From contig CAVWVQ010000002.1 of NCBI GenBank assembly GCA_963758525.1, forward strand, positions 224,001-288,000: DNA of 64,000 nt, read 5' to 3'. A program made the position numbers and the translations under genes. The DNA is from an uncultured Phycisphaerales bacterium (GTDB lineage Bacteria > Planctomycetota > Phycisphaerae > Tepidisphaerales > Tepidisphaeraceae). Below the pieces are notes generated by a model, which saw only the letters and a program-made list of their open reading frames with translations, ran no database searches and was not told the origin of the DNA. Shown in pieces: positions 34,033 to 54,657 of this stretch. Position 1 is the first letter of the stretch. Each line of letters opens with the position of its first letter.

Positions 34033-34118
34033 GGAGCAAAGGCCGTCTGGGCTGTGGCCCCAAATCACAGCCATGACGGCGCCGTGACGGCTGTGCTGCA
34101 GGGGAATCGCCCTGCCTA

Positions 34119-34562
34119 CTAACGATGACGTTCTGTGGCCGGCAACGCGACGCGCCGAGGAACGTTTGAATGGAGAACAAAGTAACGACGCGACGCGGGC
34201 CGTGACCGCGGGGTTCCTGAAGCCGTGCGGGCGTAAGCCGACGCGTGCGGCGCGTGGCTTGGTACGTGGGCGGTGGCCGCAGCGTGGCCGGCGGCCCTGG
34301 CAGCCGCGCATGCGATGGGTGAAGCCGCTGCCCGAGCCGCCGCGTGGGCAGCGAACGCGGCGCGTCGTGCTTCGGAGACCTTGATTTCGCCTCGTGCCCA
34401 TGCGCGGGCCGCTTCGATGGCCTGGCGAGGCCGAGTGTCGCCGGGACATGCTTCCTCAAATCGCCACAGCACGCGCTCGGCATCTGACGCCGCTGCGAGT
34501 GCCAGTGCCCGATGCTCAGGCGGCGTGACCGCTGGGGTGAGGTTGGGCGTTCTCTGCCGCAT
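34119..34562 (-). CDS. Imm5-like putative immunity protein (orphan cassette gene)
   Basis: AERVL..FE..PGDTRPRQAIEAARAWARG..AHAAAR..AARAAGHAAATAHV. Confidence 0.75.
   Translation of the reverse strand: MRQRTPNLTPAVTPPEHRALALAAASDAERVLWRFEEACPGDTRPRQAIEAARAWARGEIKVSEARRAAFAAHAAARAAASPIACAAARAAGHAAATAHVPSHAPHASAYARTASGTPRSRPASRRYFVLHSNVPRRVALPATERHR
34121..34219 (-). other. Degenerate attC-like site
   Basis: Shares ctgtggccggcaacgcgacgcgccgaggaac..gacgcgacgcgggccg with attC sites at 48039 and 52904. Confidence 0.65.
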
Positions 34563-34707
34563 ACCGAAGAGCACTTTATCCAGCGTGCGGCAGAAAACCA
34601 TGGCCAGACGGAAGCGGTGCGTCGCACGCCAACCAATCCGAGGCACGCCCCGCCGTTGGAAGTCTTGACCTTTCTTCGTTTTTCGCCCCACCCCTGCCAT
34701 GTTCGGC

Positions 34708-40637: not shown

Positions 40638-41612
40638 TTACTCTCTCGGCAACTCCAGCGGAGGTCGCACGGAGACGGCCTGCGTTGTCGGGAAGTCCTG
40701 CGGCACGGGAACCGTGACCGGCCGCTTGGCCAGCCACTGCAGCGCTCGCATGATCAACACCTGCTCGTCAACAGCCAACAAATCAACAGGCTGGCTTGTC
40801 GGCGACTCATCTCCCCACACGTGCCCAAATGATGACGCGTACACCCGGCCCTCCCCATAGGTGACGGTCCACTCCAGTGGCCAGTACTCTTTCGACTTCG
40901 GATCTTGCCCGTACGAAAGCACCTCGACGTTCGCTGCCGGTCCCCGTGCATACGCATAGACTTCCAGCTTGGGCGTCATCCAGAGCGGCGGCAGACCTTG
41001 ATGAATCGGATTGTTGGGCAACGAGTGAACCAAAACATCGCTCCGTGCCGCGTGCCCGGTGCCTTTTCCTTGACCCGCGGGGATCCGTGTTATGCGCCCA
41101 TCCTCGGTCATTTGCAGGGCCGTGCCATAGCTCGCAGGCCGCCATCCCAGTCCGATGATGTCGTTGTACTCCGGCCAGTCAGGAAAAGCGTTGTTCGCGG
41201 AGTGGAAGATAAACACACCGCCGCCACCTTTGACAAAAGAAACAAAATCCCGCTTCACCTGCTCTGACCATTGAGGCGCGTGCGGCTGGTGGATGTCGTT
41301 ACAGGTCTGGATGATCACATCGGCATGACTGAAATCCGGCTTCCACGGCGCGGCGTCAGCCGCCGTAACCGGCGGGATCGTGGATACCGATACATCGAAA
41401 AGCCCCGAAGGCTCGAGAATGGCGCGGAGCATCCTGGTATTGAGTTTCCAGTTGTGGTTGGAGAATCCGTCCAGAATGAGCACGCGGATCTTGCCCGGCT
41501 TCGTGCCCGCGATGTTCGGCGCGGTCGTAGGCATCTCTTGGGCCAGAACGGTGAGTACAATCCCGCAGATCAGAACGAGGCAACCGCTTACAAGCAAAGA
41601 ATTTCGCAGCAT
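40638..41612 (-). CDS. ThuA-like domain protein
   Basis: DGFSNHNW, HSANNAFPDW, YGEGRVY..GH. Confidence 0.8.
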   Translation of the reverse strand: MLRNSLLVSGCLVLICGIVLTVLAQEMPTTAPNIAGTKPGKIRVLILDGFSNHNWKLNTRMLRAILEPSGLFDVSVSTIPPVTAADAAPWKPDFSHADVIIQTCNDIHQPHAPQWSEQVKRDFVSFVKGGGGVFIFHSANNAFPDWPEYNDIIGLGWRPASYGTALQMTEDGRITRIPAGQGKGTGHAARSDVLVHSLPNNPIHQGLPPLWMTPKLEVYAYARGPAANVEVLSYGQDPKSKEYWPLEWTVTYGEGRVYASSFGHVWGDESPTSQPVDLLAVDEQVLIMRALQWLAKRPVTVPVPQDFPTTQAVSVRPPLELPRE

Positions 41613-41629
41613 TAACTTCCTCCAGATTT

Positions 41630-41696
41630 AGTTTCGACGCGACGCGGGGCCATCCAGAGTCGAATACCCGCCGTCGTGGACATAGGCGGGTTAGGC
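41630..41696 (-). other. attC remnant at the distal array end
   Basis: GCCTAAC containing the stop codon; tttcgacgcgacgcggggcc fragment of the attC family. Confidence 0.55.
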
Positions 41697-42251
41697 CGCA
41701 GCCAGCGGGCGACAGAAGACAAAGCGGTCGGCAGCGCTCCAATGGTGATCGGGTCCCGAGCGATAGCCTCGTAACCAGAGAACGCCTTCGATCCGGCGAA
41801 GGTAGAATCCCTTCGGTGTGGCGTCGTCGCTGGCGAGCTCGCGGGACGCAACCGTTAAGGAGCCGGGCGGCGCTCGGTGCTTTGAAGGTGGATGGCCGAT
41901 GCAGCCCTCGTGTTGGTCCATGTACTGAAGCCTGAGATGCGGAGCGAGTTCCAGAGGGCACAATAACAGACCGCATTCCGCGGCCCGGCCATGAATCTGG
42001 CGAATGCTGGCGCCCTCGGGACAGCCGAGATCGGCAACTGAAAGCTCTACGATTTCGGTATGTGAGACGGCTGGTGACGTGGTGAATTTGTCCTGCGCGA
42101 ACAAAACACGGGCACTTTCGTTGAGTTGGACCTTTGCATCATGGAGTTGAGCCAGCAGATCATCTTTGGTCACTCCGCCCACGCGAATCGTCTTGGCTAC
42201 TGCCGAGCAAATTGCATAATCGCCGACGCCTGGTTTGCAGTGGGAGTTCAT
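41691..42251 (-). CDS. Cassette-borne hypothetical protein
   Basis: LCPLELAPHLRLQY..PKGFYLRRIEGVLWLRGY; stop lies inside the R'' box. Confidence 0.75.
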   Translation of the reverse strand: MNSHCKPGVGDYAICSAVAKTIRVGGVTKDDLLAQLHDAKVQLNESARVLFAQDKFTTSPAVSHTEIVELSVADLGCPEGASIRQIHGRAAECGLLLCPLELAPHLRLQYMDQHEGCIGHPPSKHRAPPGSLTVASRELASDDATPKGFYLRRIEGVLWLRGYRSGPDHHWSAADRFVFCRPLAAA

Positions 42252-42273
42252 GGCGGCCTGATTGACGGGCACT

Positions 42274-42582
42274 TTATCCAGTCGCCGGTTTGTCGTCCGG
42301 CCACGCAGACAAGGGTAGATTGTACCACGCCTCAGCTTGTCGTTGAGCGTCGGCGACTGTGGAGTGCCAGGTATCGCCAGAGATCGAAGGTTCTGCTGAT
42401 TCGATAACCAGCAAGCAGCCGTCACCCTCGCATTCGATAGTGAACGTCACCCCGACGCTTCGCCGCGGGATTGGCTGCGGAATGGCGGCCCCGGGCGGCA
42501 GCCAGCCTGAGTGTGCTTGACCGCCGAGGGTCACGACGAAGTTAGTCACGCGGCTTACGACGCTCGAAGGCTTCCGCTGCAT
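42274..42582 (-). CDS. Cassette-borne small hypothetical protein
   Basis: ATG overlaps the GTTATG core; GDTWH..A..QA motif. Confidence 0.7.
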   Translation of the reverse strand: MQRKPSSVVSRVTNFVVTLGGQAHSGWLPPGAAIPQPIPRRSVGVTFTIECEGDGCLLVIESAEPSISGDTWHSTVADAQRQAEAWYNLPLSAWPDDKPATG

Positions 42583-42666
42583 AACGTAAGGCCGATCAGT
42601 AGTGCCGACTCACGAACCACGAGAATCTTACCCGCCGGCTCGCTCCATTGCGTTGGCGGGTTGTGG
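42583..42666 (-). other. Degenerate attC site
   Basis: aac..gatcagtag / ccattgcgtt ggcgg gtt. Confidence 0.55.
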
Positions 42667-43326
42667 GGCAGGCCGCGCAGCCACGCCCGCGAAGTTGATC
42701 GACATCGGCGCGAGCTTCAGGAGCGCTCGCGTCTGCTGCACTCGAGCCTCTGCGACTTTGCGGAACCGATTAGTGTCGGCAGCGAGCGCGTCCAACGCCT
42801 TGGCATCCTGCTTTGCTGCCAAGGTCCAGTCGTGATCGCCGTCCGCGGCGATCACTGCCGAGAAGAACCGATGCGCTTCATCGACAAGACCGCCTACCGC
42901 ACACGCGACCGCCGCGTCGAAGCTTGGCCAAAAGCCGTTCGGACGATGGCGAGAATAATGCTCTGCGACTGCGTTCACATCGTTGAACATTTTCCGGTAG
43001 CGGTTCACTTCCCCGGCCGCACGCTCCGACAGTTGATCTGACACGGTGGCGAACTGTGCCTCGTTCTCAATTCCTGCGAAGCTCTCAAGTCGGCCACCTT
43101 CATCGAACGAGAGATAGTTCTTGACCTTCCAAAGCCAGCAGCAACCAACGTTCAGATAGCTGCCCCGAGACCAACCGCTTGGCTGGAATTCAACGACGCA
43201 CAACCACCAGCCGTGATCGTCCAACCACGTACGCGACCTGCCCTTCTGCATAAGCCCCATTGGGCGCAGGATACTCCGTGCAGAACGCGCGATGAGTGTC
43301 GAATGAACTGGTGCTTCCTGCCCCAT
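42628..43326 (-). CDS. Cassette-borne protein, DUF4304-like
   Basis: Starts MGQEAP at the GTTATG core; KGRSRTW..VVEFQPS..YLNVG. Confidence 0.65.
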   Translation of the reverse strand: MGQEAPVHSTLIARSARSILRPMGLMQKGRSRTWLDDHGWWLCVVEFQPSGWSRGSYLNVGCCWLWKVKNYLSFDEGGRLESFAGIENEAQFATVSDQLSERAAGEVNRYRKMFNDVNAVAEHYSRHRPNGFWPSFDAAVACAVGGLVDEAHRFFSAVIAADGDHDWTLAAKQDAKALDALAADTNRFRKVAEARVQQTRALLKLAPMSINFAGVAARPAPQPANAMERAGG

Positions 43327-43434
43327 AACGAAGAGGACAATCGGTGGCGGCCAACGCGACGCGCCGCGGAACACTATACCAAGGACAAACTTTCGACGCG
43401 ACGCGGGGCCGTCCACAGCATTGGCTGGTTATCG
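43327..43434 (-). other. attC site (hybrid left end)
   Basis: AAC..GTT cores, stem with two extrahelical bases; near-identical to the 48039 and 52904 sites. Confidence 0.85.
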
Positions 43435-43985
43435 GGCACTTCCGGGCGGCGGGAAGGTACGCAGCTCGGCGCGGAAAGCTTGGCCTTTACGGCCGGACTG
43501 ATCGTGACCAGGTAGTCCGGCAGGGCCGTCACCGCCGGCTTGCCCGGGGACGCGAATGCGCCCGGCTCGTCGTCCCAGTTGATCATGTGCACGACAACGG
43601 ACCATTGCCCGGCCGCCAACGGCATCGCCCGTGTCGACCGCGTCACCTCCCCGGCAACATGCTCGATTCCGCCGACCGCGACCGCCCCGCGGGAGACGAA
43701 GCGGTACGGCTCGGAGGCGAGGAACAGGTATCGCCGCTCTCGCTCCGAAAGCGCAGCCACGCCCGCGCTGCTCAGACGCACCTCTACCTCCGCGACCATG
43801 TCTCGGCCGATGTTGATCGGGACGAAGTCGCCGGCCGAGATGTGCCGTGTTATGTCTGCGTCATCCTCCAGTTCCCGCGCCCACGTTTGGTAGTCATGGA
43901 CCTGCGAAAAGGCTTCCGGCGACCAGAGGGCGTGCATGCCCGCATCGGTCGCGAACGCACCACGCATGGATTCGCTGGTCGGCAT
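43374..43985 (-). CDS. Cassette-borne hypothetical protein
   Basis: Starts MPTSES; cassette ends are 12-bp complementary (gttatcgggcac / gtgcccgataac). Confidence 0.7.
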   Translation of the reverse strand: MPTSESMRGAFATDAGMHALWSPEAFSQVHDYQTWARELEDDADITRHISAGDFVPINIGRDMVAEVEVRLSSAGVAALSERERRYLFLASEPYRFVSRGAVAVGGIEHVAGEVTRSTRAMPLAAGQWSVVVHMINWDDEPGAFASPGKPAVTALPDYLVTISPAVKAKLSAPSCVPSRRPEVPDNQPMLWTAPRRVESLSLV

Positions 43986-44284
43986 CGTCTTGTGCCCGAT
44001 AACGAAGAGGACTTTATCCAGCGTGCGCCAGCGACGCCGGTACTCGCGACCGCTTGTCGCACGCTGGATAAAGTCTGTTGAACTGAACCGATTTTGGACG
44101 TCAACGCACGGGAGCAATTAGCCCGAAAAACCGCGCGCATACATTATTATAGGGGATTGTATTCATAGCATATTTCCGACAAAAAAGGCGGTGTCGCAAA
44201 CTGATAATCGCTCGTCAGAGAGAAGGCTGCGGCGATGCTTAGAGTACCGAACGCCGGGCGACTGCCCACCGCGCAGCGGTTTAG

Positions 44285-46220
44285 GTGCGCCTGCGAGCGT
44301 ACCAGCATAGAGAGGTGCAAGTCCTCTCCGGGCATAGCGTTCTCCAGCCCGTAACTGAAAGTAACTGCGTGGCCGTGAGGCCAGGTGGAGAGCAACTGGA
44401 GGTGAACGACCAGTCCGAAACACAAGTGAACTCGATTCGGCCTGAAACGGTGACGAGCCTGCCTAAAAGTGGCGAAGTCCAGACCCGCGAGGGAGCGATG
44501 CATCTTTCAAGGGAAGCCCGGTGAGCTGAAGGGTAACGTGCAGAGAGGCGACGAGCCTCTCGTAAAGCGATGCCGGGGCCGTGAGGGTGATTGGAGTCGG
44601 AATGGTTGGAAGTGCTGGTGCGTGAAGCAGGGAGACCTGTTCCGGAAAGCGAACGGAGTTCATACGCCGTAACCAGTCGGCGTCGAAGAGCCGCCGGGGC
44701 AGGAGTCAGAGCGTCCGTAGTAGCGACGAAACGCCTTAACGGGCGTGGAGCCAAGGGACGCAGGAAAGTGGATGCGGGATGAATAGACCAATGGAACAAC
44801 AATCGGCGCGAGTGCCCCGACTCGGGGCTAAGCAAGCCGAAGAATCCCATCGCATCGCGGGCGCAGGCTCGCGATGGGCATGGGCGGAACCATCGGTCTG
44901 GACAGCGCGCATGTTGCAGGCCCTTGAACAAGGGGTCAAAGGAGGCATCTGGTTCAGCCTGATTGATAAAGTCTACAAACGCAGCAACCTCTGGTCGTCA
45001 TGGAGTAAGGTGGCGGCCAACAAGGGAGCGGCAGGCGTGGACCATGTGACGGTGAAGCAGTACGAGCGCCATGTGGAAAAGCACATCGAGCATCTGACGG
45101 AAGAACTGAGGGCCGGGACGTATCGGCCCAAGGCGATCCGCCGGTGCTACATCCCCAAACCCGGCAGCGCCCAGGGGCGACCGCTGGGGATACCGACTGT
45201 GCAGGACCGCGTGGTTCAGGGCGTGCTGCGTCACGTGCTGGAACCGATCTTCGAGAAGGACTTTCACGAGCACAGCTACGGCTTTCGCCCCGGAAGGGGA
45301 TGCAAAGACGCGCTGCGTCACGTGCAGAAACTTTTGGACGACGGATACCGGTACGTGGTAGACGCGGATCTGAAAAGCTACTTTGACACGATCCCGCACC
45401 GGCAGTTAATGGAGCGGGTGAGCCAGAAGGTGGCCGACGGACGAGTGCTGAAACTGATCGAATCATTCCTCACGCAAGGCGTGCTGGAAGGACTGGACCA
45501 GTGGACGCCCGCATCCGGCGCGCCGCAAGGCGCGGTGCTCAGCCCACTGCTGAGTAACGTCTATCTGGACCCGCTGGACCATCTGATGGCCCGGCAGGGA
45601 TTCCAGATGGTGCGCTACGCGGATGACTTTGTGATCCTGTGTCAGAGCCAAGAGGAGGCCGAGCGGGCGCTGGCCGAGGTGCAACGATGGACGGCGCAAG
45701 CCGGTCTGACGCTGCATCCGGAGAAGACACGAATCGTCGATGAGCGACAAAAGGGCTTCGACTTCCTGGGCTATCACTTTGGCCAAGGTCAAAGAGAACC
45801 CCGGAGCAAGAGCCTCAAGAAACTCAAAGACACCATTCGTGAAAAGACCCAACGTCGGAACGGCACTCGAATGGTCTGCATCATCGGCACGGTCAATCAG
45901 ACGCTGCGTGGCTGGTTTGGCTACTTCAAACACAGCCGACGCGAGACGTTCGCTCCGCTGGACGCGTGGATCCGTATGAGGCTGCGAAGCATCTTGCGGC
46001 GACGCCACGGCGGGCGTGGACGTGGCGGTGGTCGTGACCACTACCGCTGGCCCAATGCATACTTTGCCAAGCTGGGACTTTTCTCGCTGTTACAAGCCCA
46101 TCGCTTGGCCTGTCAACCCGCTCGAACGGGAACCCACTGACTGGAGAGCCGGATGCGGGAGAACCGCCAGTCCGGTTCGGCGGGAGGGGAGGCCGGGAAA
46201 CCGGCCTTCCCTACCCCGAT
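44285..46220 (+). mobile_element. Group II intron (1936 nt)
   Basis: 5' GTGCG; domain V gagccggatgcgggagaaccgccagtccggttc (46146-46178); domain VI ending ctaccccgat; precise insertion without duplication. Confidence 0.95.
44779..46140 (+). CDS. ltrA: Group II intron reverse transcriptase/maturase, no endonuclease domain
   Basis: NKGAAGVD, RPLGIPTVQDR, SYGFRPGR, PQGAVLSPLL, RYADD, FDFLGY, LRGWFGYF. Confidence 0.95.
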   Translation: MNRPMEQQSARVPRLGAKQAEESHRIAGAGSRWAWAEPSVWTARMLQALEQGVKGGIWFSLIDKVYKRSNLWSSWSKVAANKGAAGVDHVTVKQYERHVEKHIEHLTEELRAGTYRPKAIRRCYIPKPGSAQGRPLGIPTVQDRVVQGVLRHVLEPIFEKDFHEHSYGFRPGRGCKDALRHVQKLLDDGYRYVVDADLKSYFDTIPHRQLMERVSQKVADGRVLKLIESFLTQGVLEGLDQWTPASGAPQGAVLSPLLSNVYLDPLDHLMARQGFQMVRYADDFVILCQSQEEAERALAEVQRWTAQAGLTLHPEKTRIVDERQKGFDFLGYHFGQGQREPRSKSLKKLKDTIREKTQRRNGTRMVCIIGTVNQTLRGWFGYFKHSRRETFAPLDAWIRMRLRSILRRRHGGRGRGGGRDHYRWPNAYFAKLGLFSLLQAHRLACQPARTGTH

Positions 46221-46223
46221 TTC

Positions 46224-46318
46224 AACGGACCAGCATTGAACGGCCGGCCGGGCTTGACCGTTTCTCGAATCACGAGGACCGTTCCGCCCGGCCGGTCCGT
46301 TCCAGTGCTTGGTTATCC
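46224..46318 (-). other. attC site
   Basis: aac..gaacggccggcc / ggccgg t ccgttc c ..gtt. Confidence 0.8.
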
Positions 46319-46822
46319 GGCACCGGCCAGTTCCGCCGGCTCGACAAGCGTGCGCTCCGTCTCAAGGTCATCGTACTGCACGAACGTGAGTGCATGCGGC
46401 TGGAGGCGCTGCAACTCTGCCAGCGAAGCATGCGCATCAGCGGTCAAAGCCGATTGGCGCAACGCCTCGAAGACCCGCCGATCCATTTCTTCATGTGCTC
46501 GCTCGAACGCGTCAGCTTCAGCTTCAGCTTCGGCATCGGGCAACTCGTAATAGAGCGCCTCCAGACACGCCACTTTCACGCCCGCGACGTTCGCGTTCCG
46601 CTTCGGGCGCTCGGGATCCGGCGAGAACCAGATCAAGCCGCTGCCAAAGCGGACGTACGCACGCAGCCGGTCCCATTCCCAATCCGGCTTCGCGCGAACG
46701 AACTCCGCAACGGCACGGGCGACGAGCGGCCACGCCTCGCTCATACGAGCGATGACGTCCGCCCAGTCCGTCACGCGGAGGTCGATGTGCAAGACGCCGT
46801 CTTTGAGCCGTTCGACGTTCAT
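46313..46822 (-). CDS. Cassette-borne hypothetical protein
   Basis: Starts MNVERL; stop in R''; ends are 12-bp complementary. Confidence 0.7.
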   Translation of the reverse strand: MNVERLKDGVLHIDLRVTDWADVIARMSEAWPLVARAVAEFVRAKPDWEWDRLRAYVRFGSGLIWFSPDPERPKRNANVAGVKVACLEALYYELPDAEAEAEADAFERAHEEMDRRVFEALRQSALTADAHASLAELQRLQPHALTFVQYDDLETERTLVEPAELAGAG

Positions 46823-46834
46823 GTGCCGGATAAC

Positions 46835-47112
46835 GAAGAGGACTTTATCCAGCGTGCGCCAGCGACGCCGGTACTCGCGACCGCTTGTCGCACGCTGGAT
46901 AAAGTCTGTTGAACTGAACCGATTTTGGACGTCAACGCACGGGAGCAATTAGCCCGAAAAACCGCGCGCATACATTATTATAGGGGATAGCATATTTCCG
47001 ACAAAAAAGGCGGTGTCGCAAACTGATAATCGCTCGTCAGAGAGAAGGCTGCGGCGATGCTTAGAGTACCGAACACCGGGCGACTGCCCACCGCGCAGCG
47101 GTTTAGTTCAAC
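46835..47112. mobile_element. 287-bp unit, copy 2 (9-bp internal deletion)
   Basis: Matches the other copies but lacks tgtattcat. Confidence 0.92.
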
Positions 47113-47206
47113 GGACCAACGTTCAATGGCCGGCACCACGCCGACCGGCTTTCAATTTACCAAAACGCCCGACGTGGGGCCGGTCCATTGCAGCGTTTGG
47201 TTATGC
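47110..47206 (-). other. attC site
   Basis: aac..caatggccggc / gccgg t ccattg c ..gtt. Confidence 0.82.
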
Positions 47207-47464
47207 GGCTGGCTCGCGGCGTGACTTTACTCGGACCCAGCACCCGTCATCGACCACCAACGAATGAAGCTTTGAACCGCCGACGGGACGCCGAAAACCG
47301 AAAGAAACCCAACGAAATCCGCGGTCGTCGATTTCACTGATCACAAGCACACGTCCACTATCGATTAACTTTCGGACAACGGCTCGCGTCGATCGCTCCC
47401 GCCATTCAGGCGACACCGCCACCATACGAATGCGATCACCGAGCTTAAGGGGTCGAAGCCGCAT
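47201..47464 (-). CDS. Cassette-borne small hypothetical protein
   Basis: ATG in the R' core and TAA in the R'' core; 87 aa. Confidence 0.7.
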   Translation of the reverse strand: MRLRPLKLGDRIRMVAVSPEWRERSTRAVVRKLIDSGRVLVISEIDDRGFRWVSFGFRRPVGGSKLHSLVVDDGCWVRVKSRREPAA

Positions 47465-47467
47465 AAC

Positions 47468-47754
47468 GAAGAGGACTTTATCCAGCGTGCGCCAGCGACG
47501 CCGGTACTCGCGACCGCTTGTCGCACGCTGGATAAAGTCTGTTGAACTGAACCGATTTTGGACGTCAACGCACGGGAGCAATTAGCCCGAAAAACCGCGC
47601 ACACACATTATTATAGGGGATTGTATTCATAGCATATTTCCGACAAAAAAGGCGGTGTCGCAAACTGATAATCGCTCGTCAGAGAGAAGGCTGCGGCGAT
47701 GCTTAGAGTACCGAACACCGGGCGACTGCCCACCGCGCAGCGGTTTAGTTCAAC
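47468..47754. mobile_element. 287-bp unit, copy 3
   Basis: gaagaggactttatcc...gtttagttcaac. Confidence 0.93.
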
Positions 47755-48041
47755 GAAGAGGACTTTATCCAGCGTGCGCCAGCGACGCCGGTACTCGCGA
47801 CCGCTTGTCGCACGCTGGATAAAGTCTGTTGAACTGAACCGATTTTGGACGTCAACGCACGGGAGCAATTAGCCCGAAAAACCGCGCGCACACATTATTA
47901 TAGGGGATTGTATTCATAGCATATTTCCGACAAAAAAGGCGGTGTCGCAAACTGATAATCGCTCGTCAGAGAGAAGGCTGCGGCGATGCTTAGAGTACCG
48001 AACACCGGGCGACTGCCCACCGCGCAGCGGTTTAGTTCAAC
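47755..48041. mobile_element. 287-bp unit, copy 4 (head-to-tail with copy 3)
   Basis: Junction gtttagttcaac|gaagaggac. Confidence 0.93.
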
Positions 48042-48152
48042 GGATGACAATCTGTGGCGGCCAACGCGACGCGCCGAGGAACACTATACCAAGGACAAAC
48101 TTTCGACGCGACGCGGGGCCGTCCACACGTCCACAGCATTGGCTGGTTATCC
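48039..48152 (-). other. attC site with an internal 8-bp duplication
   Basis: aatctgtggcggcc / ggccgtccaca(cgtccaca)gcatt. Confidence 0.82.
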
Positions 48153-48494
48153 CTGCGGCCGAGTTGCGGGGGTCGGATCATTCACAAATGGTAACCTGAC
48201 TCTGAAGGCGATCGGAGCCGGTGGAGCACTTTCCAAAACAATCCTTCGCAGGTCGGCGAGCGCAGCTTCATCGGCGACCGTACCGAAAACGCCTAGAGAA
48301 CCTTCCTGGCCTGTAAATGTTTCGAGATGCACATCCGTAAACCGCGGATCGCGGTGAAGCTTCTCCGCGAGAATCGGGATGTGATCCGCAGCTGCCCGCA
48401 TATTGATCGCTTGGTGACCGCCGGGAGAGTATGGGTAGTAGATCGCTACTGCTAGCACGACAACGCCGAGGAAGCCGTAGAGCCGCTTTCGCAT
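48147..48494 (-). CDS. Cassette-borne membrane-anchored small protein
   Basis: MRKRLYGFLGVVVLAVAIYY; stop in R''. Confidence 0.7.
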   Translation of the reverse strand: MRKRLYGFLGVVVLAVAIYYPYSPGGHQAINMRAAADHIPILAEKLHRDPRFTDVHLETFTGQEGSLGVFGTVADEAALADLRRIVLESAPPAPIAFRVRLPFVNDPTPATRPQG

Positions 48495-48840
48495 GAGCAG
48501 GGATAACGAAGAGGACTTTATCCAGTGTGCGACCAAAGCCGTGGCCAAGCCGAACCGGTTCAACGCACACTGGATAAAGTCTGTTGAACTGAACCGGCCG
48601 TCAGCTATGGGGATTGTATCGAGCTGCCGGAGCGGTGTCTCGCTCGGACTGGTGCGGGGCGCATCCGCGCCGTGAGGTGACGGGTGGGAACGGCTTTCCC
48701 GATCGACTCAACCCGGTTGGAATGTCGTCTGGAATCGCCGTTGGCGGACCGCAATCTCACGATCGGCGCGCACCATCCCCCTTGCCGCCGTGGAGCGGTC
48801 AATTGAACAACCGCGAGGATGGGCGGACGTGGCATGTGCA

Positions 48841-50004
48841 TCAGGAGGAGTCCAATCGGGCGAGGAGTTCGGCCAGTTGAAACGGCCCGAGATTCTCTCC
48901 CGGGAGCAACTGGCCCCGGCCGCACGACGGGCAGCACCGAGGTTTGGACGGGCCGGCGCCGAGCACGCCTGGAGTGCCTTCTTCCGGCTTGGTCACGGCA
49001 ATTGCCAGCAGGCGCCGGCAGTCGATCAGGTTCTGTGTTCTCACACAATTGGCCAATAGCCCGAAGTGGCGGATGCGCACGAAGCCGGAGGGAACCGCGT
49101 GCAGCAGGAACCGGCGGAGGAACTCATCTCTGTCCAGCGTCATCGTGCCTGGCCGGTTCTGGTGGGCGTAGTCTTTGTACGTGAAGGTGACGGTCTGGTC
49201 GTCCATCGCGACAAGCCTTCGGTTGGAGATGGCGATGCGGTGGGTGTAGCGACTGAGGTACTTGAGCACCTGCTCGGGCCCGCCGAACGGTGGCTTGGCG
49301 TAGACGACCCAATCGTGTTTGACGGAGAGATCGAGCAGCCGCTCAAAGCCGTCATCGTCTTCCGCGCCGATCAGCTTGCCGCTCTTGCGTGCGCGTTTGA
49401 GCAGGTCGATGAACTTGCCGCGGAAGACTTTGGAGAGCACGCGCACCGGCAGGAAGAAGCCGGGGCGGCAGCGGATCCATTTGGAGCCGTCGGGTGAGAG
49501 CCCGCCGCCGGGAACCACGCAATGCACGTGAGGATGCAGGCAGAGGTTCTGGCCCCAGGTGTGCAGGATGGACATGAAGCCGATCTTCGCCCCCAGGTGC
49601 TTTGGATTGGCCGCCACCTCCGACAGCGTCTGGCCCACGGCATCGAACAGCACGCCATAGATCACCCGTTTGTTGGCCAGCGCCAGCGCGTTGAACGTGT
49701 CGGGAAGCGTAAAGACCACGTGGAAGTATTCGATCGGCAGCAGTTCTTCTGCGCGATCTGCCATCCACCGCGCGCAGGCGGACGCCTGGCACTTGGGGCA
49801 GTGCCGGTTGCGGCAGGAGTTGTAAGCGACACGCCGGTAGTGGCAGTGATCGCACGTCTCGACATGGCCGCCCAATGCGGCGGTGCGGCAGGAGACAATG
49901 GCGCAGGATCCGCTGCTGCGCGCCGCTGAGGTTCTCAAGCCGATGGCCGTGACGTTCGATGACATCCGCCAGTTCCAGCGCGGGCGCTGGAACGGTGGCG
50001 TCAT
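48841..50004 (-). CDS. IS91-family transposase (Zn-binding + Y2 HUH); compensating indels near 49980 and 49902
   Basis: CDHC..NSCRNRHCPKC, HVVFTLP, LHTWG..HPHVH, YLSRY, RIRHFG. Confidence 0.92.
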   Translation of the reverse strand: MTPPFQRPRWNWRMSSNVTAIGLRTSAARSSGSCAIVSCRTAALGGHVETCDHCHYRRVAYNSCRNRHCPKCQASACARWMADRAEELLPIEYFHVVFTLPDTFNALALANKRVIYGVLFDAVGQTLSEVAANPKHLGAKIGFMSILHTWGQNLCLHPHVHCVVPGGGLSPDGSKWIRCRPGFFLPVRVLSKVFRGKFIDLLKRARKSGKLIGAEDDDGFERLLDLSVKHDWVVYAKPPFGGPEQVLKYLSRYTHRIAISNRRLVAMDDQTVTFTYKDYAHQNRPGTMTLDRDEFLRRFLLHAVPSGFVRIRHFGLLANCVRTQNLIDCRRLLAIAVTKPEEGTPGVLGAGPSKPRCCPSCGRGQLLPGENLGPFQLAELLARLDSS

Positions 50005-50868
50005 GTCGTTGCGGCGACTGCCTGTGGCGCGTAAAGCAGATCCAGCGGACTTGCAGCAGCGCTCAACTTGGCCTGCGGAGACGTGCAGGTAGATTGCCGT
50101 GGTCTTGATGTTGCGGTGTCCCAGCAGCACCTGGATCGTCCGCAGGTCGGTGCCCGCATCCAGCAGATGCGTGGCATAGCTGTGACGCAGCGTGTGCGGA
50201 CTGACCGGCCGCGTGATGCCCGCGCGGCGGGCGAACCGCTGCACGATCCGGCAACCTCCTCCGCCATCCTGATGGCGGGTGGGATCATCCGACTGGGGGA
50301 AGAGCCACTCGGCCGGACGCGCCTGCTTCCAGTAGTCGCGCAGCACCGCCAGCAGTTGCGGGGAGAGCTTGGCCATCTGAGCCTTGCTCCCCTTGCCGTC
50401 GCGAACGTGGATCAGCATCCGCGAACTATCGATATCCCCCGGCTTCAGCGCCAGCGCCTCGGAGATGCGCAGCCCCGCGCCGTAGAGCGTCATCATCAAT
50501 GCCTGGTGCCTGGGCTCATTGGCCGCAACCTCGAAAAGCCGGCGCAGCTCATCGGGCGAGAGGACCATGGGGAGCCGTTTGGGCCGCTTGGCGCAGGGGA
50601 GCTTCTCGAACCACTCGTCGCGCCCAAGCGTCACGCGGTAGAAGAACTGAAGGGCGCAGCGCGTCTGGTTGTAGAGGCTCCAGCTCACCTTCCGTTCCTT
50701 CACCATGTACAGCAGGTACTGGCGTACCTGTTCGCCGCTGAGTTGCTCGGGCGAACGGCCATAGTGTCTGGAGAAGTGAGCCACCGCCCGCACATAGGCT
50801 TCCACCGTGTGCGGCGAGAAGTTGCGCAGCTGAATGTCCTCGATCAGTCGTTGCCGAAGTGCCGTCAT
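50001..50868 (-). CDS. Tyrosine recombinase with N-terminal SAM-like domain (one extra base near 50075)
   Basis: GLRISE, GKGSK, HTLRHSYATHLL, LLGH, IY; true C-terminus ..SPLDLL in a shifted frame with ATGA overlap into the transposase; aggag RBS. Confidence 0.92.
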
Positions 50869-50989
50869 CAAATCGCTCCTTGTAAGAGAAGCGATCCATG
50901 ATGCCGGGCACCGATCAACGGTACGATTTTGCGGGCAGTGCAGAAATGAAGGTTACGTCTGTCCCCACCGCGCAGCGGTTTAGTTCAAC

Positions 50990-51030
50990 AGACGCGACGC
51001 GGGCCGGTCCACAGCAGCGGCTGGTTATCC
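50990..51030 (-). other. Half attC site (R''-side arm only)
   Basis: gacgcgacgcgggccggtccacagcagcggctggtt with the partner arm missing. Confidence 0.7.
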
Positions 51031-51056
51031 GGCACGCCGGGACGCCGCGACTGAAG

Positions 51057-51602
51057 TCACCCCTCCGGCACCACCATACCAAGCGTGGACAATTCGTCCG
51101 CCTCGACGCTCAACCGGAGTTGCCGATTGAACGTTTGGCCATCCTCGCGCACATCGCCGGCGAACACGAGGAAATTGTCCGGCAGCGCGAGGTCGGCGAA
51201 GTCGCCGGACCGACTTCGGGCCGCGTGCGTGACGGAACGTGAAACACGACCGACGAGTTCTTCGTTCGCGGTCATTACTGCTTGCCATTCCGAGTGCGGT
51301 GCGCCTGCGAGCGATGCCGACAGCCTCTCGTAGTAGGGCTCCATAGCTTCGCAGACAGGCTTCAAGACATCCCAGTGCCACTCGGCCGGTGCCCACCGAA
51401 CGCCTTCATCCGTCAGCATGCTCTCGGCGTTGACACCGAAGATGGGTGCCGAGATGACGGTGTAGTCGCAGTAAAGAATCCAGAAGGCGCCGGCGTAGAA
51501 AGTCTCGCCCGGGTTTTGGCGCAGCAGATCGGCAAGCCCGCGGTGGATCTCAATGGGCCACTGCGACTCTATTTGGTTGAGAAGGGCGCGGTGACGGTCC
51601 AT
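51057..51602 (-). CDS. Cassette-borne DUF4303-like protein
   Basis: ETFYAGAFW..RWAPAEW motif. Confidence 0.65.
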   Translation of the reverse strand: MDRHRALLNQIESQWPIEIHRGLADLLRQNPGETFYAGAFWILYCDYTVISAPIFGVNAESMLTDEGVRWAPAEWHWDVLKPVCEAMEPYYERLSASLAGAPHSEWQAVMTANEELVGRVSRSVTHAARSRSGDFADLALPDNFLVFAGDVREDGQTFNRQLRLSVEADELSTLGMVVPEG

Positions 51603-51619
51603 TTGTTGTGCCGGATAAC

Positions 51620-51906
51620 GAAGAGGACTTTATCCAGCGTGCGCCAGCGACGCCGGTACTCGCGACCGCTTGTCGCACGCTGGATAAAGTCTGTTGAACT
51701 GAACCGATTTTGGACGTCAACGCACGGGAGCAATTAGCCCGAAAAACCGCGCGCATACATTATTATAGGGGATTGTATTCATAGCATATTTCCGACAAAA
51801 AAGGCGGTGTCGCAAACTGATAATCGCTCGTCAGAGAGAAGGCTGCGGCGATGCTTAGAGTACCGAACACCGGGCGCCTGCCCACCGCGCAGCGGTTTAG
51901 TTCAAC
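51620..51906. mobile_element. 287-bp unit, copy 5
   Basis: Near-identical to the other copies. Confidence 0.93.
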
Positions 51907-52009
51907 GGATAACAATCTCTGGCGGGTCACGCGACGCGCCAGGGCACGTTGGACTAAAGACAAACTATCGACGCGACGCGGACCCGTCCAGAGCATTGTT
52001 TGGTTATGC
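51904..52009 (-). other. attC site
   Basis: aatctctggcgggtc / gacccg t ccagag c att; stem covaries relative to the 52904 site. Confidence 0.85.
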
Positions 52010-52588
52010 CCTCGTGCCGTCAGGCCGCTCGGGTGCTTGCAGCCCGGCTTCCTTAATGAGCGCCCGATAGCGCCCCTCCTCACCGGGGGTATCCGCCGCC
52101 GGGTGCCCTAGCAGCCGTTCAACAGGCCAGATGGCCCTATTGTCGAACCGTTCGTCGTCTAGCAAGAGCAGTAGGGCGCCCGCTTTCTGAGCGATCGAAA
52201 TCCAAGTATTGCGAACACTGGGCGACTCTTCGAAGAGCAAGCTCATACCGGTAGTAGCGGCTGTCGCTCGGAAGATCACCAAATTTCCCTCCACGATAAG
52301 GGTACTCCAGACGCACCCGATCCGGACCAGACCGTTAATCAATTTTCGCTCTGGGCTGTAAGCCTCGACTTGTCCATCAGGGGGAAATAGGAAGCCGAGG
52401 CATAGGTCTGACATGTTCTGTTCTAGGGGCGTGCGTTCTATATCCCCGAGCGGGCAATCCACGTCCGAGGGAACACAAGCAAGCAAACGACCGCTATCAG
52501 TGGGATCCAGATGTTCCGCGATAGCACGAATGACGCGGTCCGCGGACGAGCGCTCGGCAATGAGCTCGAAAGCGTAATCTAGTCCCAT
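52004..52588 (-). CDS. Cassette-borne hypothetical protein
   Basis: Starts MGLDYAFEL; ends are 13-bp complementary. Confidence 0.72.
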   Translation of the reverse strand: MGLDYAFELIAERSSADRVIRAIAEHLDPTDSGRLLACVPSDVDCPLGDIERTPLEQNMSDLCLGFLFPPDGQVEAYSPERKLINGLVRIGCVWSTLIVEGNLVIFRATAATTGMSLLFEESPSVRNTWISIAQKAGALLLLLDDERFDNRAIWPVERLLGHPAADTPGEEGRYRALIKEAGLQAPERPDGTRA

Positions 52589-52619
52589 CGTGCCACCGGT
52601 TCCGCTACGAGGGCATAAC

Positions 52620-52906
52620 GAAGAGGACTTTATCCAGCGTGCGCCAGCGACGCCGGTACTCGCGACCGCTTGTCGCACGCTGGATAAAGTCTGTTGAACT
52701 GAACCGATTTTGGACGTCAACGCACGGGAGCAATTAGCCCGAAAAACCGCGCGCATACATTATTATAGGGGATTGTATTCATAGCATATTTCCGACACAA
52801 AAGGCGGTGTCGCAAACTGATAATCGCTCGTCAGAGAGAAGGCTGCGGCGATGCTTAGAGTACCGAACACCGGGCGCCTGCCCACCGCGCAGCGGTTTAG
52901 TTCAAC
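52620..52906. mobile_element. 287-bp unit, copy 6
   Basis: Near-identical to the other copies. Confidence 0.93.
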
Positions 52907-53009
52907 GGATGACAATCTGTGGCGGCCAACGCGACGCGCCGACGGACACTATACCAAAGACAAACTTTCGACGCGACGCGGGGCCGTCCACAGCATTGGC
53001 TGGTTATTC
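52904..53009 (-). other. attC site
   Basis: aatctgtggcggcc / ggccg t ccacag c att. Confidence 0.87.
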
Positions 53010-53530
53010 GGCGACCGGTGAGCGGGTCGTGTACGGTTGAGACGGTGCCCCTTCGCTAATATAGCGCTTGGCGATTTCTTCGGCGCGGCGGCGCGCTCGG
53101 TCCGAGCCGGCATCTAAGCTGCCGAATTCAGCGTTCTCACGAATCACCTTTGCCACAGCAGGACTGTACACTAATTCTGCGCGCCAGTTGGCAAGATGCT
53201 TTGCACGCATGCTGAGTTTGATGAACCGATGCGATTTCCGGTGACGGCCCATTACGGTGACGCTCTCCCCGCCCATGCCCCAAAAGAAATCGTAGACGAA
53301 CACTTTCGCGCCGGCGCAAAATGCTTGGTCCCGCGGCGCTTCTCGACACCCCCCGGACCATAATCTCGCTCTATGACGACATTGGCGGCGACGCACCAAG
53401 CAGGTTCGGAGCCCCGATTCTCGTAACCCGGATCGATCCAGGCTGGCAGCTGAGAGCCACCGGCGATTTGAGGTGCGACGGAGGCCGGTTTTGATTTCGG
53501 ACGCAGAAATCGGAGTAGAAAGTCGAGCAT
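53004..53530 (-). CDS. Cassette-borne hypothetical protein (frameshift near 53315)
   Basis: MLDFLLR..WCVAANV..GTKHF continues as GAKVFVY..GRHRKS in another frame. Confidence 0.65.
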
Positions 53531-53553
53531 CGCTGATCGCCTCTTCGCCGAAT

Positions 53554-53642
53554 AACGTATCAACGTTCTGTGGCCGGCCGCCGTGGACTGCGGTTCTCCA
53601 ATGCCACCGTCGTGGCCGGTCCACAGCAGCGTTTGGTTAGGT
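53554..53642 (-). other. attC site of the first, ORF-less cassette (53557-53725)
   Basis: R'' ACCTAAC matches R' GTTAGGT at 53725; stem ctgtggccggcc / ggccgg t ccacag. Confidence 0.85.
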
Positions 53643-54657
53643 TTCCTGCGCAAAAGCCTATAACAACGAAAACCATCATTTGCAAGAAATACGCAAGATT
53701 ACGACATGCTTAATGGAAACCTAACTACAAATCTCACGCGCTCGGGTGCCTATAGCGGTTACGGGCAAGCCGTCGCGGCCCCCAGTATCGTCTAATTTAC
53801 ATAATTTACATAGATAGTGTCAACCACTCGCCAGAATATTGGCGGGCGAATTTCGCGCGTAGGTTAGGGCGCGTGATATTGCTGGAGCGCTTTTGGCGAA
53901 GAGAGTAGACAAAGGCAGGAGCGGGCGAGAGCCCGGCGACAAGTCGCTCGGCTCTGCGCTGGCGCGACGTGGATGCCCCCTTGGATTGGACGACGCTACC
54001 CAATGCCAGACGCAACCGTCGTTCGGAAAGCACCGCCCCCACCCCGGCCCTCCCCCCGGAGTACCAGGGGAGGGGGGAAACCGTGGAGCGAACGCTCCGC
54101 CGAAAGCGTCAGGGCGCCGGAGCATCGGGCTGCACCTGCAAGCGCAACCTTGATTGCTCGCGAGGCCCTTCCCCTTCCGCGTAAGGAAACGTCAGATCAG
54201 TCAGATATGCAAAGGCCGATGGCGAATTTGCGGGCGTGGCGGGGGCATGAGCGGGAGATTTGCTTTTTTTCGCGACGTGGATTCGTCGCGGGATCCGAAT
54301 ACTTGGAATCAGGGCATCGCTTGCGGAGGGCGTGCATGAACCTTCGGCTGCACGTTCGCGTGCGGACTTCCCCCTTCGGATCGGGGGCTCGAGTTGGAAG
54401 AGAGCGTTTGGAGCGAAGACAGTTCTTTTACGTTCGAAATCACCCTCACCCCTGCCCTCTCCCGGAATAATACCGGGAGAGGGAGAACATGCAGCGACGC
54501 TCGTCAGCCGCGGTGATTGCTCCCTCTGCTGGAAATACCCGGAGAGGGAGAAGACGCAACGATGGTCGTGCAGCTGCGGTGATCGTGCATGTCGGTGATT
54601 GAGTGGCTGGCAACCATGCGGATAATGGGTTAAAGGAACATCCGGAGTACGTATCGC

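Follow-up and report, generated by a model that had tools for sequence, protein, structure and literature searches.

A two-gene IS91-type transposon with cassette-like ends in an integron array

The stretch of DNA analysed here (the window; 64,000 nucleotides, G000:C2:224001-288000, where G000 is the source genome and C1-C3 are its contigs) contains on its minus strand a copy, about 2.5 kb long, of an element that pairs a tyrosine recombinase gene with an IS91-family HUH transposase gene and is bounded like an integron cassette. Its recombinase is not of IntI type, its hairpin is not an attC site and its right end is not that of a canonical IS91 element, yet by its junctions the element is cassette-like. 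This end format is a family trait, conserved across phyla. The account that we favour, with a probability of roughly 0.55, is that the element is an autonomous IS91 variant whose own recombinase would join the folded bottom strand of a circle to its target at N|TT (the bar marks the crossover), the HUH protein making that strand.

Ends and genes of the element

On the minus strand the unit starts with GTTGAAC at 50989; towards its other end GTTCAAC occupies 48589-48583 and is followed by 1 nt, a perfect 18-bp stem, 6 nt and a GTT triplet at 48507-48505. The 14-nt ends (50989-50976 and 48596-48583) are complementary at 13 of 14 positions. An earlier note on this DNA had described this start, this end with its hairpin and GTT, and a 13/14 end pairing resembling that of neighbouring cassettes; all of this is borne out, the neighbouring cassettes pairing start to end over 11, 12 and 13 nt (n = 3). 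The window's own junctions all read GTT, so that the cut position cannot be placed from them; applying the crossover rule derived below from homologues, the element unit is 50988-48507.

The left end (50967-50989) consists of a G|TT triplet (50989-50987), GAAC, 3 nt and a small GC hairpin, which is the terIS layout of IS91. Taken alone, this small hairpin is unremarkable in stability (z -1.3). The inverted copy of the left end, resembling an R'' box (48583-48596, minus strand), is recognised by the 13/14 complementarity and by covariation with the left end. Beyond it lies the right-end hairpin (48514-48581, minus strand), identified by folding and by a helix found family-wide, whose outer stem arms (48564-48581 and 48514-48531) pair without any extrahelical base. 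The hairpin has z scores of -5.4 and -4.8 on the two strands, with none of 200 shuffles equally stable, and the fold energies of its perfect stem on the two strands are nearly equal, at -23.9 and -22.3 kcal/mol. The 6-nt spacer and the right G|TT triplet (48505-48513, minus strand) complete this end, the TT being read from the junction as part of the next cassette. About 100 bp inward of the right end is an oriIS-like motif (48607-48619, minus strand) similar to the one at the terminus of IS1294, of IS91 and of an IS801-like element, a likeness judged by eye on three controls and weaker in a fourth, ISVsa9. No consensus promoter was found in the left end or in a mini-copy of the element (0 sites in 50850-52000), and an Rfam scan gave no match except a group II intron. 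The earlier description of the element as formatted like a cassette holds for the complementary boxes, for the presence of a hairpin and for the family as a whole; the hairpin is attC-like but without extrahelical bases.

The recombinase gene (50001-50868, minus strand) precedes the transposase gene (48841-50004, minus strand), its native stop overlapping the transposase start in ATGA at 50004-50001. The catalytic residues R134, K159, H225, R228, H251 and Y260 are all there. I2, the insertion of about 40 aa before HxLRH in IntI, is absent and appears as a gap in the alignment against VchIntI4 (PDB 2a3v): the distance from GKG to HxLRH is 67 aa, as against 106-107 aa in five of five IntI proteins and 71-73 aa in two Xer proteins. 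The same residues and the same missing insertion had been reported in the earlier note, which took the enzyme for a non-IntI recombinase, and its score of 197 bits with the IntI model TIGR02249, under the cut-off of 265, fits that view. In a recombinase tree from a quick search the IntI proteins form one group (99) and the element recombinase falls with IS91-linked ones (99, 5 rows); one outgroup row, mistranslated, served as the midpoint root, and the tree does not show where IntI arose. The recombinase was also said to be the only one in the array. It is the sole match in the 64-kb window by tblastn, but this carries no weight because a full IntI on C1 adjoins a second array that shares DNA with the window array. 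The HUH transposase scores 417 bits with NF033538 (cut-off 125) and contains the PF04986 and PF14319 domains.

The window copy is probably decayed. Its recombinase gene has a +1 indel near 50077, downstream of the catalytic Tyr codon, and its transposase gene has two more, near 49982 and 49900, which compensate each other and leave about 25 residues at the N terminus scrambled. Together the three produce an apparent 675-aa fusion open reading frame (ORF), in which the catalytic residues and the HUH domain remain in frame. A genuine recombinase-transposase fusion was ruled out, as there are two genes in relatives and the three indels are absent from related contigs of other runs. In one relative (L192:442-2601) recombinase and transposase form a single 719-aa ORF. 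No sequencing run containing half of the stretch was found and no RNA run is listed; four group II intron copies in the same genome, described below, have zero indels over 1945 bp each, which leans towards genuine decay over assembly error as the source of the indels.

With IS91, IS801, IS1294 and ISCR the element shares an IS91-type HUH transposase, a left end of terIS layout and, past the transposase gene, an ori-like motif; the GAAC, 3 nt and hairpin at 50986-50967 match the left-end layout of IS91 and of an IS801-like element (L106, L107). The IS91, IS1294 and IS801-like controls start with a tetranucleotide separated by 3 nt from a palindrome, and end a few bases past the origin motif, by the target tetranucleotide, in keeping with the CTTG/GTTC target rule of IS91 (PMC13181058). 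The element differs in having an additional recombinase gene, in boundaries at N|TT instead of a CTTG/GTTC-type target, and in its ori-like motif, which is not at the terminus abutting CTTG/GTTC but internal, the inverted repeat and the hairpin taking up a further 100 bp or so.

The literature already covers the gene pair itself, the relation of its recombinase to IntI and a single instance next to attC. IS91-linked recombinases are reported in 10.1101/542381 to group with IntI and to lack the insertion, and the journal version (PMC8138268) retains the subgroup without naming IS91. The ISShvi3 type, or 'Integron-like' recombinase subgroup of Smyshlyaev et al., is likewise an IS91 element with an upstream tyrosine recombinase. 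In the portions available, its descriptions give no end anatomy, crossover, mini-copies or mechanism, and it is by these descriptions, rather than by the ISShvi3 sequence, that the present element is set apart. We found no published account of the end anatomy or crossover in a partial literature that excluded supplements, among which Figure S2 of PMC9229058 may bear on the point.

A family-wide format and its crossover

The homologue collection covered the phylum (matches in 29 of 301 genomes) and the order (matches in 9 of 141), together with 31 species-genome loci, 80 metagenome loci and four plasmids (27 places). The scored set comprised loci L012-L207 minus 12 (8 duplicates and 4 canonical controls), giving 184 loci, and motifs were counted at a threshold score of 12 with opposite-strand controls, using matrices seeded from the same loci and with multi-copy sets included. 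The recombinase gene lies upstream of the transposase in 153 of the 184. The left-end motif was present at 110 of 137 loci (opposite-strand control 1), the inverted left-end copy at 97 of 167 (control 3) and the ori-like motif at 104 of 167 (control 0). A general lack of the hairpin/GTT format among homologues had been named in the earlier note as an observation that would count against it. No such lack was seen: of the 84 distinct right ends, 54 form at least 11 of 12 outer-helix pairs without a gap, compared with 1 and 0 in the controls.

The variable bases of the left end change in concert with those of its inverted copy. Position 1 is paired in 44 of 54 cases (shuffled mean 18), position 2 in 50 of 54 (39.5) and position 5 in 52 of 54 (34), levels reached at each position by none of 2000 shuffles, although kin are not independent. 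The loops of the right-end hairpin vary freely with the pairing retained. Hosts known by name include Acidobacteria, Phycisphaerales, Clostridia, Sphaerochaeta, Maribacter and rhizobia. Matches to the recombinase occur in 326 plasmid records, and the transposase patterns are estimated by the search tool to occur in some 63,000 stretches of metagenome DNA, a count that does not show the presence of the recombinase. The family-wide occurrence of the format rules out that it is a special adaptation to the window array.

These ends could also be read as a substrate in double-stranded or cruciform form, recognised by the recombinase at the junction of an excised circle, as an ordinary integrase would do, with the HUH protein replicating the circle or being a mere passenger. 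The missing I2 insertion would suit such an enzyme, the perfect stem folds near-equally on both strands (at the energies given above), and several targets resemble, by eye, double-stranded recombinase cores of attI or dif type. We regard this as quite unlikely: loops that vary while pairing persists indicate a folded structure, and gene-less copies in G000 and its relatives retain the ori-like motif.

The position of the crossover comes from multi-copy sets, the informative ones being three Mesorhizobium plasmid copies, two Sinorhizobium plasmid copies, two Sphaerochaeta copies and one of seven right ends in the relative G335. Base 1 of the left triplet varies among copies (G, G, A; T, A), as do bases 2-3 of the right triplet (TT, AT, TA; TG, TT; one GT). 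This variation places the crossover at N|TT, the position used by integrons, and supports the earlier reading of the unit as cassette-like. Compared with the terIS cut of IS91 it lies 2 nt further out, and roughly 100 bp separate it from the ori-like motif. In four plasmid copies the left end is interrupted by another insertion.

A rival reading is a modified rolling-circle transposon in which the HUH protein makes both junctions, the hairpin is an origin signal, the target is a short triplet and the recombinase only resolves tandems or cointegrates. The left end does have the terIS layout, an ori-like motif is present, the transposase scores above the IS91 cut-off (NF033538), the junctions of L047 and L090 are compatible with a cut at the terIS position, and tandem copies for such a resolvase exist (L078/L082, L207 and window 47752). 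Most informative junctions, on the other hand, read N|TT and not the terIS cut, the ori-like motif has no adjoining CTTG/GTTC target and the element extends about 100 bp further, and covariation between the left end and its inverted copy plays no part in known IS91 transposition. Joining by the HUH protein alone is improbable in our judgement. Under the favoured account, in which the recombinase itself makes the junction, the same tandem junctions carry the sequence predicted for a circle junction.

Several target sites have features of their own. Rhizobial-plasmid subgroups (L080, L085, L087, L088, L091, L092, L096, L097, L100 and L102-L104) show a fixed 4-5-nt target with an ATT core, and their insertions lie several times at the termini of neighbouring insertion sequences. 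Four left junctions (L044:3817, L242:1512, L230:1282 and L232:1349) have a short upstream motif in common, which by eye resembles half an attI core and may also resemble half a dif core.

The family appears able to move by itself. The genomes G311 and G276 contain six and five transposase matches, respectively, with copies at unrelated G|TT sites; neither gave an IntI match, an absence limited by their completeness (78% and 90%), and no attC match was found beside the element at four G311 loci. Multiplication in genomes without an IntI match, incomplete as these are, supports the self-mobility proposed in the earlier note, and most relatives lie outside arrays. Near several copies in G311 (L198, L200 and L207) there are additional hairpin-arm repeats, each ending in GTT, that look like a little array formed where the element itself sits. 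The left flank of L014 reads by eye like the start of a gene of integron-integrase type, as if the element had inserted there. One record, L108 (NC_011316.1), is a 4.3-kb plasmid with three annotated features, one of them an IS91-like transposase that may be the plasmid's replication protein.

The host array, its mini-copies and an intron

The array around the element is an integron that retains its attI and has lost its intI. Its attI and promoter-side region (53722-53890, minus strand) has 76-77% identity to both regions between intI and the first cassette on C1, one of which is beside a full intI and the other beside a partial one, and no IntI match adjoins it. The array (41600-53725, minus strand) contains seven full-length ordinary attC matches, from a profile that was trained on seven window sites, so that the window matches are circular; five of the seven are followed by a left end of the element family, compared with two of nine in the C1 array. 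These ordinary sites are bulged, with spacers of 4 versus 6-8 nt, whereas the element hairpin is unbulged, with spacers of 1 versus 6 nt. Only the left half of an ordinary attC (50990-51029, minus strand; model positions 2-47 of about 110) stands upstream of the element, ending at its left junction. The first cassette after attI (53555-53725) is short, about 175 bp, and seemingly geneless.

Gene-less units of 287 bp share the ends of the element, six in the window and two on C1. These mini-copies retain all four cis motifs, namely the left end, the ori-like motif, the inverted repeat and the hairpin; the ori-like core is undeleted in seven of the eight, one of the seven having a substitution. 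All six in the window are on the minus strand. Copies at 52617-52906 (in which the left end, ori-like motif, R''-like box and hairpin were each recognised) and 51617-51906 follow intact attC sites, and a third at 47752-48041 follows an attC, the last two being placed by sequence match and the attC profile. A tandem copy at 47465-47754 is joined, by our reading of the junction, at the G|TT of the preceding copy's hairpin. Alignment and the attC profile place another after an intact attC at 46832-47112, with a 9-bp deletion in its ori-like motif. The sixth, a sequence match at 44001-46226 and also after an intact attC, is in two parts (44001-44284 and 46221-46226), its left end split by a group II intron. 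Across G000, all 11 left ends of the family that were found are preceded by an attC (8), half an attC (2) or a sister hairpin (1), and the element and every mini-copy lie in cassette orientation. Insertion the other way round was rejected for this genome on the direction of the genes, the bulged arm and the order of intI and attI on C1. Part of the mini-copy was matched in 16 of 140 genomes, and gene-less or deleted derivatives occur within arrays of other relatives.

The intron (44285-46220, plus strand) lies opposite to the cassette genes and encodes a reverse transcriptase (ORF 44779-46140; TIGR04416, 404 bits against a cut-off of 300), with an RF00029 match at 46144-46220. Four full copies, 99.9% alike, are present in G000, at window 44284/44285, C1:203958, C1:209252 and C3:3033439, all inserted at the identical base of an element-family left end, directly past the small hairpin. 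Three of the host sites are mini-copies and one is the left end of a different element. This group II intron homes to a transposon left end within integron arrays.

C1 carries a full IntI (C1:197954-198970; 339 bits with TIGR02249, cut-off 265) and an array that has a 2.85-kb block in common with the window array. Within that array a second, truncated intI (C1:205850-206215, L001; 64% identity) has its own attI region, so that the C1 array is two integrons in a row. With a complete integrase in the genome, the element and its mini-copies in the window array might behave as ordinary cassettes on which the host IntI acts in trans. The family would be autonomous elsewhere, but the positions in this array would then carry no information on the element's own enzymes. 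The attI of the window array and the block held in common with C1 would agree with this, as would the cassette orientation of every copy at G|TT, the presence of IntI in G335 as well and the three indels of the window copy. The hairpin, however, has none of the extrahelical bases that are important to IntI recognition (PMC3053210), and a single gene-less unit after five of seven window attC sites, compared with two of nine on C1 beside intI, is more in line with targeting of attC than with one capture after another at attI. We consider movement by IntI to be rather unlikely. In this host's lineage, attC crossover points have likely served as homing sites for the element and its 287-bp gene-less derivatives, which took up the orientation of the cassettes. 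In G335, an attC match directly precedes four of five left ends (four checked), one of them in a complete integron; G335 carries IntI, so that either enzyme may have acted there. The link to attC is strong in the host's family.

Other traces of the family are scattered through the host genome. At window 50990 and at C1:204866, element-family left ends are joined to the middle of an attC, with the left attC half remaining. An ordinary attC at 43323-43434 ends in 9 nt of the element's right end and looks as though a mini-copy had been lost through a crossover between stem and spacer and not at G|TT. A stray cassette 7 kb past the array (34100-34600) has a partial attC and a remnant hairpin of element type. 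On C3, a symmetrical element-type hairpin with the right-end spacer and GTT on both sides stands at 101277-101361 (L006), and in two extra-array remnants at 122016-122290 and 124603-124799 (L005) an ori-like motif is combined with attC-like sequence and with the opening codons of a related recombinase.

Proposed mechanism and meaning

The favoured mechanism combines steps known separately from the two systems. The working intermediate of IS91 is a bottom-strand single-stranded circle (PMC13181058), and integrons recombine the bottom strand (PMC8946536). In the element, the HUH protein would start rolling-circle replication at the internal origin and so supply the strand. The right-end hairpin and the two paired ends would then form a folded single-stranded site, which the recombinase is predicted to join to its target at N|TT. 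A circular intermediate would account for tandem junctions with the expected circle-junction sequence. The cutting enzyme, the strand used and the circle are the parts that we infer, as is the central proposal of the earlier note that a rolling circle supplies a folded strand on which the recombinase acts. The I2 insertion reads extrahelical bases (PMC7790495), which matter in IntI recognition (PMC3053210), and a recombinase without I2 co-occurs here with a hairpin without such bases. At a guess, the uneven spacers of 1 and 6 nt might substitute for them.

A number of observations weigh against this mechanism. Some 30-40% of scored loci fall below the motif thresholds, one subgroup has no end-to-end pairing (for example L020, L084 and L133), and the motif matrices were seeded from scored loci that include multi-copy sets and duplicates. 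The junctions of L047 and L090 differ at two supposedly fixed bases and fit an IS91-type cut. Of 79 left junctions in our own scan, only 7 had an attC-like hairpin upstream, where chance would give about 3, which makes attC homing a habit of only part of the family; the scan was crude, the window half site scoring 8, and L036 and L037, with attC-like hairpins by eye, fell outside it. IntI is present in G000 and G335, so that copies there could have been placed by it. If replication began at the internal origin while the copy was still integrated, the displaced strand would lack the right hairpin, so that a prior excision step would be needed. Lastly, a recombinase without I2 must avoid a second strand exchange, a difficulty set out in PMC7790495.

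Known systems share parts of this picture. Integron cassettes and attC sites have complementary R''/R' boxes, a hairpin, a G|TT crossover and a forward position in an array at attI, as the element does; the element differs in having no extrahelical bases, spacers of 1 and 6 nt, its own recombinase and transposase, and spread outside arrays. With CTXphi and other elements that exploit the host's Xer (IMEX) it would share, as proposed, the integration of a folded single strand by a tyrosine recombinase without I2 (PMC7790495), but it encodes a recombinase itself, carries no phage genes and is not restricted to dif, its targets being varied. Group IIC-attC introns and IS1111-attC elements are likewise selfish elements that gather at attC (PMC3001079 and PMC9229058). 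The introns lie opposite to the cassette genes, whereas the element lies in cassette orientation, and it differs from both groups in bringing its own hairpin and leaving the upstream attC whole.

To the picture of the family this locus contributes mini-copies, which retain every cis motif and occupy most attC junctions of an array without an integrase of its own, and a group II intron whose homing site is the left end of the element. If IS91 elements with a recombinase gene are self-mobile single cassettes, their bottom strand being the product of a rolling-circle protein and its folded end being integrated at N|TT by an I2-less IntI relative, they might even represent a pre-integron state, attC having come from the element hairpin and IntI from the element recombinase by gain of I2, with present-day elements parasitising arrays and seeding mini-cassettes. 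We hold this idea tentatively and think it doubtful; the scenario of integron origin in PMC7790495 begins with Xer proteins and CTXphi-like elements.

Rules made for IS91 probably misdraw the ends of recombinase-bearing elements, and gene-less 'cassettes' in arrays may be transposon derivatives. For the origin of folded-single-strand recombination in integrons this widespread two-gene element offers a direct test system, and it points to a possible link between rolling-circle transposons and integrons.

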